A stretch of DNA of 64,000 nucleotides, from positions 32,001 through 96,000 of the IMG/VR virus record IMGVR_UViG_3300011335_000809; one strand, 5' to 3'. Source of the DNA: a virus. This document shows, piece by piece, positions 17,425-32,306 of this stretch. The notes under the pieces were generated by a model. The model had not been told where the DNA came from and did no database searches. It saw only the letters and a program-made list of their open reading frames with translations. Both the position numbers and the translations under genes were made by a program. How positions within the stretch are numbered: the stretch's first letter is position 1; every line of letters begins with the position of its first letter.

Positions 17425-17809
17425 TGGTGGAGATGGCGGGGAGTCGCACCCCGCGTCCATAAAAAATTATTACTGCCAGACTACACGTTTATATATTTTA
17501 AATTGTTTGGGGTAATAATAAAAAATATCTAAAAATATTACCCTTAAGATTTACCATTTTCTCAGCCATTTACGCAAATCAAATATTTGGCCCAGTCCAA
17601 TAATTTACACCCAATACAACTATCAGACTTCATTGTATTGAATGTGCAACAACTTAGGCTGCAAGGGCTACAACGTCATCATAAGAGAAGTCATAGCTAA
17701 CTACGTTATCTTCAGCAGTTAATTTTCAATAGAACTTTTAAAGAGGCCAACTATTATCCTCTACGTGCCTAACAATAGATATTTATCTATGTCGAATCTA
17801 CACATCCCC
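17425..17809 (-). ncRNA. ssrA: tmRNA; tag peptide AEDNVVSYDFSYDDVVALAA* (17654-17716)
   Basis: 5' GGGGATGTGTAGATTCGAC; 3' GCGGGGTGCGACTCCCCGCCATCTCCACCA; G3:U pair; tag ORF ends LAA-stop. Confidence 0.95.
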
Positions 17810-19177: not shown

Positions 19178-19251
19178 TGGAGCGGGTAGAGGGAATCGAA
19201 CCCTCACATCAACCTTGGCAAGGTCGAAGGCTACCACTACATCATACCCGC
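19178..19251 (-). tRNA. tRNA-Gly(GCC)
   Basis: Cloverleaf, loop TTGCCAA, CCA. Confidence 0.95.
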
Positions 19252-19303
19252 GATCTGAACATTAATATATAATCGAAACTAATCAACATACATTAATTTA
19301 AAA

Positions 19304-19378
19304 TGGTGGACCGTAAGAGAATCGAACTCTTCCCTAAAGCTTGCAAAGCTCCCGTGCTACCACTATCACTAACAGCCC
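19304..19378 (-). tRNA. tRNA-Ala(TGC)
   Basis: Loop TTTGCAA, G3:U70, CCA. Confidence 0.95.
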
Positions 19379-19673
19379 ATTTAAAAATCTTACACCAATA
19401 TATAGTGTTTGTCAAACTAAAAATCAAATTGTATGACTACGACTTGCGAATATACGAGGATTTCACTATACTTTGTTCCATATGTCTATCTCGTCAACTT
19501 CAGTCTCCTCTACCAGCTAATAGGTAGCGTGCTACAATTCTATACACAAATAGTCAAATCTAAAAATCAACCCTATCCTATCTGGATCAGATTCGTCCGG
19601 GTCAGACATACAGGGGTGTATCGTGTCCCTCACGCTGTTGGACGTTTCCACCCAACACGCACATTTACTAAAA

Positions 19674-19750
19674 TGGTCGGGATGACAGGACTTGCACCTG
19701 CAACTTCCTGACTCCAGATCAGGCCGTCTCCTAATTGACAATACACCCCG
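19674..19750 (-). tRNA. tRNA-Pro(TGG), atypical C33
   Basis: CCTGA-TCTGGAG-TCAGG anticodon arm, C1:G72, A73, CCA. Confidence 0.8.
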
Positions 19751-19754
19751 AAAA

Positions 19755-19862
19755 TGGTCAGCGTAGTGGGATTTTCACCTGTCATATAAACATCTCTTTC
19801 AAGCCACACTCATTGTTCCCGTTTCGTTGGGAAATGACTCTTTAATGTTGGTCTACACGCTG
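19755..19862 (-). ncRNA. tRNA-like RNA with aberrant anticodon/T region
   Basis: Acceptor CAGCGTG/TACGCTG-ACCA intact, interior expanded to about 108 nt. Confidence 0.55.
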
Positions 19863-19871
19863 ATTATAAAT

Positions 19872-19945
19872 TGGTTGGGGATGATGGAATCGAACCACCA
19901 CAAGCAGATTCAAAGTCTGCCGCACTACCATTATGCAAATCCCCA
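19872..19945 (-). tRNA. tRNA-Gln(TTG)
   Basis: GCAGA-CTTTGAA-TCTGC, CCA. Confidence 0.95.
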
Positions 19946-19951
19946 GTTAAA

Positions 19952-20839
19952 TTACTTTTCATAAAGATTGATAAAATCTTTTCCGTATTTTGATGTCACA
20001 TAATCAATATACATCTTAATTTTGTGTTTGTCAATCACATTTAATTTAAATGGAAAAGAATTTATTTTTGCTTTATTTTTATTATCTAAATAACCTTTTA
20101 TTTCAAAATATTCATTTGTTGATTCAAGAATAAAGTCTGGATAAAAATTATAATTGTTATTATTGAACTTATAGGGGAATCCCTCAGTATTTCTTTTAAA
20201 TTTTATATTATGTTCTAAATTGAAAATTACCCACGCCAATTCCCAACTGCTATTACAATAATAACCTTTATACCATCCTTGTTTACCTCTTCCGCCTTTT
20301 TCACGATAACCTCCTCGTTTACCTTTCAAAAGTCCGTTTACTTTTACATATGTATTTCTACAAATTTGAGAACAATATATCTGTTTTGATTTTTCTGTTT
20401 TTAAAAAATTGTAATTACAATGTGGACATAATATAGATTTACGTTTTTTTACTCTAATCTGTTTTTTTGCTAATTCAGATAATCTTTTTTTGCCTTCTAT
20501 GTCCCATTTTTTGTGACCTCCAAACTTTTGGTTTTCAATAGATGCACATTTTGTAGAACAAAATTTATTATTTCTTCTAGAATATTCTAAATCAATATTG
20601 CAATATTCACACTTATTTGGATTTAGATTATATTTTTCTACTCTAAATAGTTTTAAACGTGGTGAAATTGTTTCTCCATTAAACTCTACAGAACATTTAT
20701 TAGAACAAAAATGATTGTTAGTTCTTTTTATTTCACTTTTATATTTTAAAAACTCAATATTACATTTTTTACAATTTACTAATATTTTACTCATACTAAT
20801 AAATAGTAATTTTGGAGCGTAAAATGAATTTTGAATCAA
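19952..20839 (-). CDS. free-standing PD-(D/E)xK endonuclease with Zn-finger repeats (putative homing endonuclease); start probably at 20794
   Basis: CxxC...FCSxxC repeats; SSWE...YPDF...EIKG; lies inside tRNA array. Confidence 0.75.
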   Translation of the reverse strand: MIQNSFYAPKLLFISMSKILVNCKKCNIEFLKYKSEIKRTNNHFCSNKCSVEFNGETISPRLKLFRVEKYNLNPNKCEYCNIDLEYSRRNNKFCSTKCASIENQKFGGHKKWDIEGKKRLSELAKKQIRVKKRKSILCPHCNYNFLKTEKSKQIYCSQICRNTYVKVNGLLKGKRGGYREKGGRGKQGWYKGYYCNSSWELAWVIFNLEHNIKFKRNTEGFPYKFNNNNYNFYPDFILESTNEYFEIKGYLDNKNKAKINSFPFKLNVIDKHKIKMYIDYVTSKYGKDFINLYEK

Positions 20840-20856
20840 AATATTTTGTTTGATTC

Positions 20857-20931
20857 TGGTGCAGTAGGAGAGAATTGAACTCTCATTTCAAGTTTGGAAG
20901 ACTCACGTAATAGCCATTATACCACTACTGC
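20857..20931 (-). tRNA. tRNA-Gly(TCC)
   Basis: Loop CTTCCAA, CCA. Confidence 0.92.
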
Positions 20932-21016
20932 ATTTTAATAAATTATTAGATGTTCAGTCATCAAATATTTGATGTGTACTATGAACCACGGACAGGTAAT
21001 CTAATTTCTCATAGCG

Positions 21017-21106
21017 CGGAGGCGAAGGGTGCTGCCCCCTCAGTGGCTTTTAGACCACGGCAGTTTAGCAAACTGCTGTAGAAACCTGACTATCTACGTC
21101 ACCTCC
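21017..21106 (-). tRNA. tRNA-Ser(GCT), no encoded CCA
   Basis: GCAGT-TTGCTAA-ACTGC, long variable arm, G73. Confidence 0.9.
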
Positions 21107-21194
21107 ATAAAATCTTTTGACAAACTCCGATTTCTTCAAGAGACGATATTATCAGTCTTCGGTTCCATTGTCAAGTGGAGTTGTATTAAAAGAG

Positions 21195-21278
21195 CGGAAG
21201 CAGTAGGACTCGCACCTACGAGGGTTTATGGCCCCAGGCGTTTTCAAGACGCTTTCCTCGACTAACCGGACTACTTCC
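21195..21278 (-). tRNA. tRNA-Ser(TGA), no encoded CCA
   Basis: Loop CTTGAAA, long variable arm, G73. Confidence 0.9.
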
Positions 21279-21293
21279 ATATAAATTAAAAAT

Positions 21294-21378
21294 TGGTGGG
21301 CATAGAGGGACTTGAACCCCCACGGATTTCTCCACGAGCTTCTAAAGCTCGAACGGCTGCCAATTACGTCATATGCCC
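21294..21378 (-). tRNA. tRNA-Leu(TAG)
   Basis: CGAGC-TTTAGAA-GCTCG, variable arm, CCA. Confidence 0.95.
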
Positions 21379-21385
21379 AATAAAA

Positions 21386-21461
21386 TGGTCGGCTCGGTGC
21401 GACTCGAACGCACAATATCTTGTACCCAAAACAAGCGGAATAGCCATTATCCTACGAACCG
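21386..21461 (-). tRNA. tRNA-Pro(TGG)
   Basis: CTTGT-TTTGGGT-ACAAG, CCA. Confidence 0.93.
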
Positions 21462-21471
21462 ATATTAAAAA

Positions 21472-21547
21472 TGGTAGGTGGTATAGGATTTAAACCTATG
21501 ACATTTTGCGTGTAAAGCAAATGCTCTATCAACTGAGCTAACCACCC
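21472..21547 (-). tRNA. tRNA-Val(TAC)
   Basis: TTTGC-TTTACAC-GCAAA, CCA. Confidence 0.93.
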
Positions 21548-21577
21548 GTTTAAAAATTGTTATATACTTTATTTTAA

Positions 21578-21672
21578 TTATCGCCAGATGGGTTCTGTAT
21601 TTCAGCATAACACCCAGTGACCGATCAAATGTTTTAACTTATGTTGGGGACATCAGATAGAGTTTCAACCCC
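21578..21672 (-). ncRNA. conserved tRNA-array 5' leader RNA motif, copy 1
   Basis: Shares GGTGTTATGCTGAAATACAGAACC core and flanks with 31613-31741, with compensatory stem changes. Confidence 0.7.
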
Positions 21673-21687
21673 GTTCGTTATATTTCT

Positions 21688-21715
21688 AATTTACCATACT
21701 TCGTCAAATTGTCAA
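21688..21715 (-). promoter_or_regulatory. sigma70-type promoter for tRNA array 1
   Basis: TTGACA-N16-TAAATT. Confidence 0.7.
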
Positions 21716-21726
21716 CCATTAAAATC

Positions 21727-21760
21727 AAAAACCCGTCATTCTTTTTAAAAGTGACGGGTT
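21727..21760 (-). terminator. attenuator terminator 1
   Basis: ACCCGTCA...TGACGGGT followed by U-rich tail; 5' arm can alternatively pair with 21776-21787. Confidence 0.85.
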
Positions 21761-21787
21761 GTATATTTTTAGCAAACAACCACTCAC

Positions 21788-21841
21788 TCAACTTCCGGAT
21801 GGGAGTTGACTGGCTTGACTAGGTTGTGAAATTAAATTCAT
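21788..21841 (-). CDS. leader peptide 1, MNLISQPSQASQLPSGS
   Basis: 17-codon ORF after late-promoter-like TATATATT, just upstream of antiterminator/terminator; composition matches tRNA array 1. Confidence 0.75.
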   Translation of the reverse strand: MNLISQPSQASQLPSGS

Positions 21842-21919
21842 ATTCGTACTAATATATAGTGTTTGAAATTATAAATCAACAAAATTATTTAATAATTTTC
21901 AAATAAACTTCATTAAATT

Positions 21920-22873
21920 TTAGGATACTTTCTCAAATCCCGTCATATTAATTACGTTCAGGTTTTGACCAATAATAGCCTCTACTTGAGTTTTTCTACT
22001 GAGTAACCAAGCAAATGATCCAACTTTATACCACGCGCCCAATAGTGCCAATTCACTACCTACCTGCACAAATATTGGATTTCCAGAATCACCACCTCTT
22101 TGTGTCTCATAATACGACTGTGATGTGCCAAATACTGAAGCTTCTACATCAGCAACTGCATCAATTAATCGGGTCATATCTCCAATTGAAACTTTTTTGT
22201 CTTGATTGAGGAACAAAACAGGTAACCGTAAAGTTATGAATTGGACCCCCATCACACTATTAATTTCAGTTTTGATGTATTGTTGCCAGTTGTCTGGTAA
22301 TACTGAATATATCTTCAGACTACTATCAATTGATTGATCAAGAGTTCCAATTGCAATATCACTTCCATCAATCTTGTCGATCTTGATGATGTTGTATTTG
22401 AAGGTCACATTGTTATCGTTAACAAAAAAGATTTCTGAATTTGGCAAATAAGGAACGTGTGCAGACAATAAGACATGTTTATTAGTAATAAGAGTTCCAC
22501 CTCCAACACCACCGAGGCCATTTATACCAGCTGCAGTGCCTGTCCATTTATAAGATATCACCCAAGAAGCAGAATTTCGAACCCAAGAAAAAGTAGATTG
22601 GATAAACGCACTGAATAAACTACGGTCTTTGCTGGTCGCCATCATTTTGATCAGTGTGGATTTGATATTAGATACCCAGTTAGTACGTACACTACCACTA
22701 CTACCACTACTACCACCTATACCGCTACTACCAACTGTTTTACTAGATATCACTTTTGGTAACAATGCATTAGATATAAGTTTAGTTACTACAGATGTTG
22801 ATTGAAGAATTATTGTTTTTAATGAGGAAGTGCCTATTCCGCTACTACCACTTGATCCACTTGTCGATGCCAT
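21920..22873 (-). CDS. trypsin-like serine protease
   Basis: LLSAH, DIAIG, GGDSGNP catalytic triad motifs. Confidence 0.85.
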   Translation of the reverse strand: MASTSGSSGSSGIGTSSLKTIILQSTSVVTKLISNALLPKVISSKTVGSSGIGGSSGSSGSVRTNWVSNIKSTLIKMMATSKDRSLFSAFIQSTFSWVRNSASWVISYKWTGTAAGINGLGGVGGGTLITNKHVLLSAHVPYLPNSEIFFVNDNNVTFKYNIIKIDKIDGSDIAIGTLDQSIDSSLKIYSVLPDNWQQYIKTEINSVMGVQFITLRLPVLFLNQDKKVSIGDMTRLIDAVADVEASVFGTSQSYYETQRGGDSGNPIFVQVGSELALLGAWYKVGSFAWLLSRKTQVEAIIGQNLNVINMTGFEKVS

Positions 22874-23663: not shown

Positions 23664-23819
23664 ATTTAACTATCCTTTATTTTGTTTATTTATGTTTACT
23701 ACCCACGTTAAGAACAGCTTAACGTTTATTTTGAAAAGACACTAAAATGTACTTTTCAGAATAATTTTTTATCAACTAATATATAGTTTTTATAATCTTA
23801 TTATAACTAATTTATTTAG

Positions 23820-29779: not shown

Positions 29780-29894
29780 ATTAAAAATTAAAAATGTTTA
29801 CTGGATTTCAACGAACGTTCCATCTACTAATCATAACCTCGTCAGATTATAACATTCAATGTCTATCAGTGTCAATACATTACTTACTACTTCA

Positions 29895-29968
29895 ACTATT
29901 GATTCAGATTCGAACTGAATTACTCCCGCTTATTCGTGCGGTTGTTTTACCAATTAAACTACGTTCGT
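29895..29968 (-). pseudogene. degenerate tRNA (D and T arms intact, acceptor unpaired)
   Basis: GTTTAATTGGTAAAAC and TTCAG-TTCGAAT-CTGAA; 8-nt anticodon loop. Confidence 0.55.
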
Positions 29969-29995
29969 TGCCTTCACCTAATGTATTTGAAAAAA

Positions 29996-31560: not shown

Positions 31561-31612
31561 GGTCTAAATTTTCTTTGCTTATTTACTTATAACAATAACC
31601 TCAGTTATGTTA

Positions 31613-31741
31613 TTATCGCCCTATAGGTTCTGTATTTCAGCATAACACCTACGGACCAATCAATTGATTTTCCCAGTTCTCACCTTATCATCGGTCTTTC
31701 CGACTCACTGGCGGAGGCTCAACAGATGGAGTTTCAAGCCC
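31613..31741 (-). ncRNA. conserved tRNA-array 5' leader RNA motif, copy 2
   Basis: Homologous to 21578-21672, with an inserted hairpin. Confidence 0.7.
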
Positions 31742-31758
31742 TTCCTTTATCTTCTATC

Positions 31759-31876
31759 AGTCTATCATAACTTTCGTCATTGTCAACCGACTTTTAAAAT
31801 TTCTTTTTCATCATCCAATGAACTACTACCTTCGTTCACTGTTTAACTACTTTACCACACCTTCAAAGAACGTCAA
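31759..31876 (-). promoter_or_regulatory. two tandem sigma70-type promoters for tRNA array 2
   Basis: TTGACA-N16-TAGACT (31759-31786) and TTGACG-N16-TAAAGT (31849-31876). Confidence 0.7.
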
Positions 31877-31886
31877 CCACAAAAAT

Positions 31887-31917
31887 AAAAAAACCGTCAC
31901 TTTTTAGTGTGACGGTT
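31887..31917 (-). terminator. attenuator terminator 2
   Basis: AACCGTCAC-loop-GTGACGGTT plus U tract; 5' arm can alternatively pair with 31953-31966. Confidence 0.85.
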
Positions 31918-31948
31918 GATATTGTTTTGAAGTTACCTAAGTTTGAGT

Positions 31949-32026
31949 CTATACAATATCACCGCCAACACATTCACAATTCGTAAATGTATCCCAACGT
32001 TTAATATGTGTATACTGTACTCTCAT
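31949..32026 (-). CDS. leader peptide 2, MRVQYTHIKRWDTFTNCECVGGDIV
   Basis: 25-codon ORF after TATATATT; contains all 12 amino acids of tRNA array 2; last codons form the antiterminator strand. Confidence 0.8.
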   Translation of the reverse strand: MRVQYTHIKRWDTFTNCECVGGDIV

Positions 32027-32306
32027 TATATTAATATATATTATCAAATTTACTAAACGTCAAGAATTTTTATTGCTAAAATTCTTTATAACTTTATACA
32101 AACTATAAAAACAATATGTTGTTAATACTGTCAAAGCACTAACTCCTAGACTCATTCCTATAGTCACTACCCACCCAATTATATTACGTTGTTCTTCACT
32201 CAATGTAAACATATCTCAGAATATATACTCGATCATTAATCATTAAACTTAATATATTAAATTAAAATTATAACCACTTATTACATCAATTCTATCTATA
32301 TTAGTT

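Follow-up and report, generated by a model that had tools for sequence, protein, structure and literature searches.

A 64-kb stretch of viral DNA (hereafter, the window), part of a 115.6-kb IMG/VR virus record with identical sequence found in river and lake metagenomes, carries ahead of an array of tRNA genes (array 1) a short module, attenuator 1, which is probably a ribosome-mediated (leader-peptide) transcription attenuator gating read-through from the promoter P1 into the array. According to this reading, the phage would probably make more array-1 tRNAs when ribosomes read the codons of the leader slowly. The reading is supported by comparative and statistical data, which show the elements themselves and how they are conserved, the competing pairings, the match in amino-acid composition and, in metatranscriptome contigs, RNA across the terminator; translation of the leader, stalling and the switch itself are inferred. 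All parts lie on the minus strand (Table 1). The coordinates and counts that a first-pass annotation had given for attenuator 1 were all correct where checked by direct reading of that strand, including the 17 sense codons of the leader ORF (ORF1), which are exactly those listed, and the TCAACT/AGTTGA hairpin at its end.

Table 1. Coordinates of attenuator 1, array 1, the sister attenuator of array 2 and the leader ORFs of distant lineages (the last in the coordinates of their own sequences).
Feature	Position	Strand	Remarks
317-aa upstream gene	3' end at 21920	(-)	
Promoter P1	21851..21879	(-)	TTGATT (21879..21874) + 17-nt spacer + TATATT (21856..21851); read from sequence
Leader ORF1	21788..21841	(-)	17 codons + TGA; ATG 21841-21839, TGA 21790-21788
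Segment 1	21822..21827	(-)	ACAACC within codons 5-7; partner of segment 2 GGTTGT without ribosome in MFE folds
Inner hairpin	21788..21809	(-)	TCAACT (21809..21804) / AGTTGA (21793..21788), 10-nt loop; stop codon within 3' strand
Segment 2	21776..21787	(-)	GTGAGTGGTTGT; antiterminator 5' strand, directly after stop
Segment 3	21751..21762	(-)	ACAACCCGTCAC (ACAACC + CGTCAC); overlaps terminator 5' arm
Intrinsic terminator (segments 3:4)	21727..21759	(-)	ACCCGTCA (21759..21752) / TGACGGGT (21738..21731); 8-9 bp stem + T run
Promoter P2	21688..21715	(-)	TTGACA + 16 nt + TAAATT, upstream TG; between attenuator and array
Structured leader RNA	21570..21681	(-)	P2 to tRNA-Val; second copy 31612..31760
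tRNA array 1	19178..21547	(-)	Val, Pro, Leu, Ser(TGA), Ser(GCT), Gly(TCC), [HNH endonuclease gene], Gln, Ala, Gly(GCC)
tRNA-Ser(TGA)	21278..21196	(-)	Rfam tRNA-clan match, anticodon loop CUUGAAA
tRNA-Ser(GCT)	~21104..21020	(-)	Anticodon loop UUGCUAA, read from sequence
Attenuator 2	31881-32045	(-)	ORF2 + terminator, then two sigma70 promoters
Leader ORF2	31949-32026	(-)	25 codons, leaderless, unrelated to ORF1; ATG 6 nt past -10 hexamer
Distant leader ORF, L063	13047-13118	(-)	
Distant leader ORF, L019	10477-10584	(+)	
Distant leader ORF, L105	5386-5487	(+)	
Distant leader ORF, L016	1587-1721	(-)	
Distant leader ORF, L078	259-351	(-)	
Distant leader ORF, L103	3049-3180	(+)	
Distant leader ORF, L102	3906-4007	(+)	
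Distant leader ORF, L095	580-687	(-)	

Transcription from P1 is predicted to start at approximately position 21844, leaving a 5' UTR of just ~3 nt, with the ATG located nine bases past the -10 hexamer. The P1 hexamers are kept in relatives while the spacer and the upstream gene differ, and the -10 context of this promoter is also present at 23787..23777 and ahead of ORF2, the leader ORF of a second array described below. Directly after the stop codon of ORF1, segment 2 is composed of a hypervariable hexamer and a near-invariant GGTTGT (AGTTGT in L109/L110), and it is separated by 13 nt from segment 3.

The region of attenuator 1 folds better than its shuffles (z = -3.9). As had been proposed, GTGAGTGGTTGT can pair with ACAACCCGTCAC at 10 of 12 positions (4 + 6 pairs, -11.2 kcal/mol), and the duplex between segment 2 and the terminator arm reaches -13.2 kcal/mol, with P = 0.016 vs shuffles in the window and marginal values of P = 0.04-0.24 in several variants. 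The antiterminator hairpin was the MFE structure of its segment in all 14 sequences folded, the window included. Nevertheless, when the isolated hairpins are compared, 2:3 (-11.2 kcal/mol) is slightly weaker than the terminator (-12.5 kcal/mol), and the attenuator 1 antiterminator is the weakest in the family. Folding with and without a ribosome footprint, the check that the first-pass annotation had put forward for its model, gave two different outcomes. Without a ribosome, segments 1 and 2 pair by nt 70 (-18.8 kcal/mol) and the full-length MFE structure combines 1:2 with the terminator (-32.7 kcal/mol); when a footprint is placed anywhere from codon 4 to codon 14, 2:3 is formed in each case before segment 4 has been made. 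At nt 94, when segment 3 has been made and segment 4 has not, 2:3 is the MFE structure (-20.7 kcal/mol). In the full-length RNA, the conformer with the terminator has the lowest free energy in every case, whatever the position of the ribosome; stalls at codons 7-13 narrow the energy gap to it the most (1.9-4.2 kcal/mol), and the gap is widest without a ribosome or with a ribosome at the stop (~10 kcal/mol), a pattern that fits a kinetically controlled attenuator. An antiterminator unable to compete energetically had been named in advance as evidence against the model; the antiterminator turned out to be competitive, but barely, and it loses to the terminator once the whole leader has been made. 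Segment 2 spans positions +3 to +14 from the first base of the UGA, 0-12 nt past the stop and inside the footprint of a terminating ribosome, and as far as geometry is concerned this agrees with the earlier suggestion that a ribosome at the stop would mask segment 2 and a stalled one would free it.

Conservation is unevenly distributed over these elements. The sequences forming the 1:2 pairing (ACAACC/GGUUGU) and the inner hairpin are kept, with no covariation: segment 1 is invariant in the relatives except in the L013/L077 lineage, the stems of the inner hairpin, a candidate pause site, are invariant, and most changes to the last eight codons of the ORF lie in its loop. Nowhere does the module vary more than in the six bases that follow the stop. 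Every version of this hexamer still pairs partly with CGUCAC, in differing registers, and the observed hexamers rank at 5-39% among all 4096 hexamers, which by itself lends weak support; the outer four pairs of the antiterminator have no fixed register. In L109, GGUUGU is weakened and a 6-bp UGACGG/CCGUCA match appears, and a C>T change found in the terminator 3' arm of some relatives still gives a G-U pair.

In the proposed mechanism, P1 would give rise to an almost leaderless transcript on which a ribosome translates the 17-codon ORF. If decoding were fast, the ribosome would have reached the UGA during the synthesis of segments 3 and 4, segment 2 would be covered, and the terminator would form, ending transcription at approximately position 21727. 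If aminoacyl-tRNAs for Ser, Gln, Pro, Ala, Leu or Gly were scarce, a lagging ribosome would cover segment 1 and leave segment 2 free to pair with segment 3, sequestering the terminator 5' arm, and the polymerase would go on past P2 and the leader RNA to transcribe the tRNA genes. On a leader free of ribosomes, segment 1 would pair first with segment 2, leading to termination. The outcome would be a feedback in which limiting array-1 tRNAs are made in greater amounts, on top of a basal supply from P2.

The amino-acid composition of ORF1 matches the array that follows it. Indeed, 14 out of 16 residues fall within the array-1 amino-acid set (P = 1.2e-4 by simulation), a level that only two out of 522 small ORFs in this genome attain, and membership in this set differs between ORF1 and ORF2 (14/2 vs 6/18; Fisher P = 2.4e-4). 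The array tRNAs that had been said to read leader codons, Ser-TGA, Ser-GCT, Gln-TTG, Pro-TGG and Gly-TCC, are all present. Val is, as previously observed, the sole array-1 amino acid absent from ORF1 in the window; in four relatives (L044, L065, L112 and L114), codon 4 is GTT (Val), so that all seven kinds are present and 15 of 16 residues belong to the set. The match between roster and array is imperfect in some relatives, and in the L013/L014/L077 lineage the ORF has 66 codons, with 55% of residues in the array-1 set. Unlike classical leaders, ORF1 contains no tandem runs of one regulatory codon, and for its codons TTA, GCC, CTC and TCC the array has no Watson-Crick cognate anticodon.

The start, frame and stop of ORF1 are kept in 20 distinct sequences. 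Changes in the core comprise five synonymous (CCT>CCA, GCC>GCA, CTC>CTT, TCC>TCA/TCT) vs two replacement substitutions (TCC>TTG, GGA>GAA), while replacements in codons 2-4 lead to S, V, L or Q. Four of the six variable core sites are third positions (P ~0.1), thin evidence for coding in a core with little variation. ORF1 is predicted to be translated. The missing Shine-Dalgarno motif was considered as an argument against translation and rejected, since the absence of such a motif is the norm in this genome: only 12 of 66 long ORFs in the whole record (G000) are preceded by a Shine-Dalgarno-like motif. Many ORFs of the record also have their start codon only a few bases from a preceding TATATATT-like -10 element. 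Both features suggest that mRNAs with a short leader or none are widespread and that the host does not rely on Shine-Dalgarno pairing.

Relatives of the module were gathered by protein-anchored and pattern scans of IMG/VR, which provided 20 distinct module versions. The unit formed by P1, the ORF, segment 2 and the terminator is kept behind at least four unrelated upstream genes; a module that has its own P1 and remains intact in such different contexts is thus not the terminator of the upstream gene. A Val-Pro-Leu-Ser-Ser-Gly-Gln-Ala-Gly array is always found 3' of the module, even in L107 and L114, which have an unrelated leader of ~110 nt in place of the leader RNA. In a phage GenBank collection, tRNA-Val alone was matched and no relatives of the module were found. 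Rfam assigned no family to the ORF1 unit or to the leader RNA, giving only noise matches to STnc240, sau-41 and Thr_leader at 16-24 bits, and neither a T-box riboswitch nor any other family was matched (E <= 10) at 21540-21900.

A sister attenuator, attenuator 2, lies before the second tRNA array of the window (array 2). The start, frame and stop of its ORF2 are kept in 12 relatives despite two 6-nt indels, independent of each other and both in frame, and numerous synonymous substitutions, and this pattern of sequence change clearly indicates that ORF2 is coding. In codons 2-19, every replacement remains within the amino acids of array 2, and all 12 sequences have the His codon, at position 4 or at position 7. 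Every one of the 12 amino-acid kinds of array 2 occurs in ORF2 (P = 3.6e-4), a completeness seen in 1 of 522 small ORFs; this 12-kind set was derived from the relatives, in which Glu tRNAs are present. In array 2 of the window itself, no Glu tRNA was found and Tyr is represented only by an insert-bearing tRNA-like gene. The last codons of ORF2 (GGCGG, one base, GATATTGT) pair with ACAATATC and the terminator arm (-15.4 kcal/mol, P = 0.0015), forming a 14-bp antiterminator that overlaps the final codons of the ORF. The GGCGG core of this pairing is kept even where an indel shifts the reading frame, and in L083 both terminator arms have changed and there is a perfect 11-nt match. This clade offers a natural two-way control in one genome, with ~19 amino acids divided over two arrays and two matching leaders. 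A proposal that Cys codons track tRNA-Cys across ORF2 relatives failed: both Cys codons are lost in L072 and L097, and L072 has a tRNA-Cys 5 kb downstream. Within array 2 of relatives, between His and Arg(acg), ARAGORN called tRNAs with four-base anticodons (ctct in L021, L024, L032, L052, L061 and L098, ~630 nt after ORF2; cgga in L083), which may be tRNAs with eight-membered anticodon loops.

The structured leader RNA, which the first-pass annotation had listed as a finding of its own, also occurs in eight distant lineages and ~35 closer loci, ahead of the first tRNA and behind the attenuator or P2. It has an invariant core (GGTGTTATG, a hairpin and CAGAACC), closing stems with compensatory changes (TGGGT/ACCCA vs TAGGT/ACCTA), and a 5' hairpin domain, to which the distant lineages optionally add inserted hairpins; a hammerhead or RNase P-like reading, based on motif resemblance only, was dropped as no tool supported it. 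Each of the eight distant lineages, which were reached through this motif, begins with a sigma70 promoter, followed by a small ORF (23-44 codons) different from ORF1, a terminator and the leader RNA. In all eight, a segment within -18 to +15 of the stop is complementary to the terminator 5' arm and its flank (duplex P vs shuffles from <0.0005 to 0.11). The leader ORFs hold 15-20 amino-acid kinds, and three of them hold all 20 (simulated P = 0.0005-0.009 each); out of 643 small ORFs in these sequences, four contain the full set of 20, and all but one of the four are distant leaders. In a broader proposal, to which we give an even chance of being right, large phages would regulate each tRNA block separately through a roster-type leader, with the transit time over one codon of each kind reporting the supply of the tRNAs encoded downstream and setting read-through. 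Such a leader would be a homeostatic sensor of the tRNA pool, able also to answer host defences that cut or deplete tRNAs. The leader peptides of L102, L105, L063 and L095 share (H)WF(K) and YNRPE or IDNRPE, and by sequence these four are homologous at the peptide level; they loosely resemble the W...D...P pattern of the TnaC arrest peptide.

Attenuator 1 is not the sole gate of its array. Across the relatives, P2 keeps its -35 hexamer and its TG, with a -10 hexamer that is almost unchanged and a spacer that differs. Since a conserved sigma70 promoter is located between the terminator and the array, the attenuator could gate P1-started transcripts only: P2 bypasses it, and array tRNAs can be obtained without read-through. 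P2 weakens the idea of a sole gate and not that of a working attenuator, a device that in this clade would only add to a basal level. RNA data consisted of assembled contigs from four freshwater metatranscriptome studies, a type of data that gives no 3' ends, strand or level. The ORF1 unit is covered by contigs, with a depth of 80-174 at 21720-21786 in one run (X18), and two contigs, 21468-21793 and 21468-21831, bridge the terminator and P2. The stretch 22157-22607 in the upstream gene had cover in 0 of 4 runs, which is not proof of its silence. The contigs are compatible with transcription from P1 and some read-through, and are to be taken as a weak hint.

The conserved P2 directly downstream is also what would be expected if the module were an independent short unit, in which P1 yields a ~115-nt small RNA or serves the remnant of a micro-protein gene, the array is driven by P2 only, and neither the composition of ORF1 nor the 2:3 complementarity is regulatory. 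The near-invariance of the 44-nt ORF core in most relatives, wobble positions too, points in this direction, as do the place of this frame at the end of a 66-codon ORF in L013/L077 and the abundance of the ORF1 unit in RNA contigs, expected of a stable small RNA, although an attenuator too would yield abundant terminated RNA. We consider this explanation unlikely, since it leaves unexplained the array-specific composition of ORF1 and ORF2, the richness in amino-acid kinds of the distant leaders, and the ten independent cases in which a stop adjoins a segment complementary to the terminator 5' arm. It does not account either for the lineages L102, L105, L016 and L103, where inspection by eye revealed nothing resembling a pair of promoter hexamers from the terminator to the leader RNA. 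The comparative data from the relatives, array 2 and the distant lineages are the reason why a plain terminator followed by a separate promoter is treated here as a rival.

A second possibility is that attenuator 1 is a real attenuator that senses general coupling between ribosome and polymerase, such as ribosome availability or host shut-off, and not particular tRNAs, its amino-acid make-up being secondary. The lack of tandem regulatory codons, the presence of nearly all amino acids in the distant leaders, and the ORF2 of L072, devoid of Cys even though its array has a tRNA-Cys, would all be in line with such a general sensor. However, the split of amino acids between the two leaders of this clade parallels that between its two arrays, replacements in codons 2-19 of ORF2 stay within the array-2 set, and its His codon has been relocated and not lost, all of which renders this possibility improbable. 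Finally, 17-codon ORFs are common in AT-rich DNA and genes normally end in terminators, but a chance ORF beside an ordinary terminator of the 317-aa upstream gene is very hard to believe in view of a module with its own promoter, intact behind four different upstream genes, with start, frame and stop conserved in 20 distinct sequences and a composition of P ~1e-4.

Leader-peptide attenuators are known from the amino-acid operons of enterobacteria, with trpL, hisL, pheL and leuL as examples and with thrL and ilvGMEDA as multivalent cases. The leader-peptide attenuator reading proposed for attenuator 1 shares with the trp, his, thr and ilv leaders a short ORF (its translation is predicted here), an intrinsic terminator, and an antiterminator that uses the terminator 5' arm. 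As in the enterobacterial leaders, the ribosome at the stop codon is predicted to mask segment 2, and a 1:2 hairpin to lead to termination without translation; as in thr and ilv, one leader would read several amino acids. Of the enterobacterial cases, pheL is described in PMC3082878. Unlike the enterobacterial leaders, attenuator 1 is phage-borne and would gate tRNA genes and not biosynthetic enzymes, ORF1 is a one-of-each roster of the downstream amino acids in place of a run of a single codon, the ORF starts almost leaderless with no Shine-Dalgarno motif, and the terminator is followed by a constitutive promoter and then by a conserved structured leader RNA. T-box riboswitches likewise involve a terminator/antiterminator decision that reports the state of tRNAs, but they bind uncharged tRNA directly and control aminoacyl-tRNA synthetase and amino-acid genes.

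The nearest case in print is the trn operon of Anabaena sp. PCC 7120, a silent tRNA array induced by translational stress via promoter repeats and the repressor TrcR (PMC8421152, PMC10272220). As would be the case here, impaired translation leads in Anabaena to the expression of an accessory tRNA array, whereas the two Anabaena trn papers make no mention of a leader peptide, an attenuator or a terminator. In Sinorhizobium meliloti, rnTrpL is a small RNA derived from an attenuator (PMC6614838), and similarly to this case the ORF1 unit is abundant in RNA contigs, as a terminated attenuator transcript can accumulate. Full-text literature searches found no published trp-operon-style leader-peptide control of tRNA genes. 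Why phages carry tRNA genes, and how these are controlled, has been debated for decades (PMC10264068, PMC13015707). If the attenuator reading is true, classical attenuation would be extended to a new class of targets, tRNA genes, and phages would have a direct mechanism for sensing translational stress or a tRNA-targeting defence. The ~115-nt module would constitute a compact, testable sensor with a clear prediction for each tRNA.

Downstream of attenuator 1, ARAGORN identified tRNA-Val(TAC), Pro(TGG), Leu(TAG), Gly(TCC), Gln(TTG), Ala(TGC) and Gly(GCC). The two Ser tRNAs of array 1 are real, though missed by this program. Between Gly(TCC) and Gln, a 295-aa HNH endonuclease-like ORF (19952-20839, minus strand; PHROG 1271, E = 4e-10) is inserted in the array, recalling the homing endonucleases of phage tRNA regions; a PHROGs search on the neighbouring proteins gave nothing beyond HNH endonuclease families for this 295-aa protein and one weak methyltransferase match for a 443-aa protein. 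Between Trp and Asn, a tRNA-like element (29903-29961, Rfam tRNA, 23.6 bits) lies within 29790-29988 (minus strand), a stretch with contig depths of 516 and 689 in two metatranscriptome runs, well above those of the neighbouring tRNAs. Just downstream of array 1, the phage encodes a full-length tmRNA at 17425-17809 on the minus strand, which was not called by ARAGORN and was recognized by Rfam (RF00023, 106 bits).
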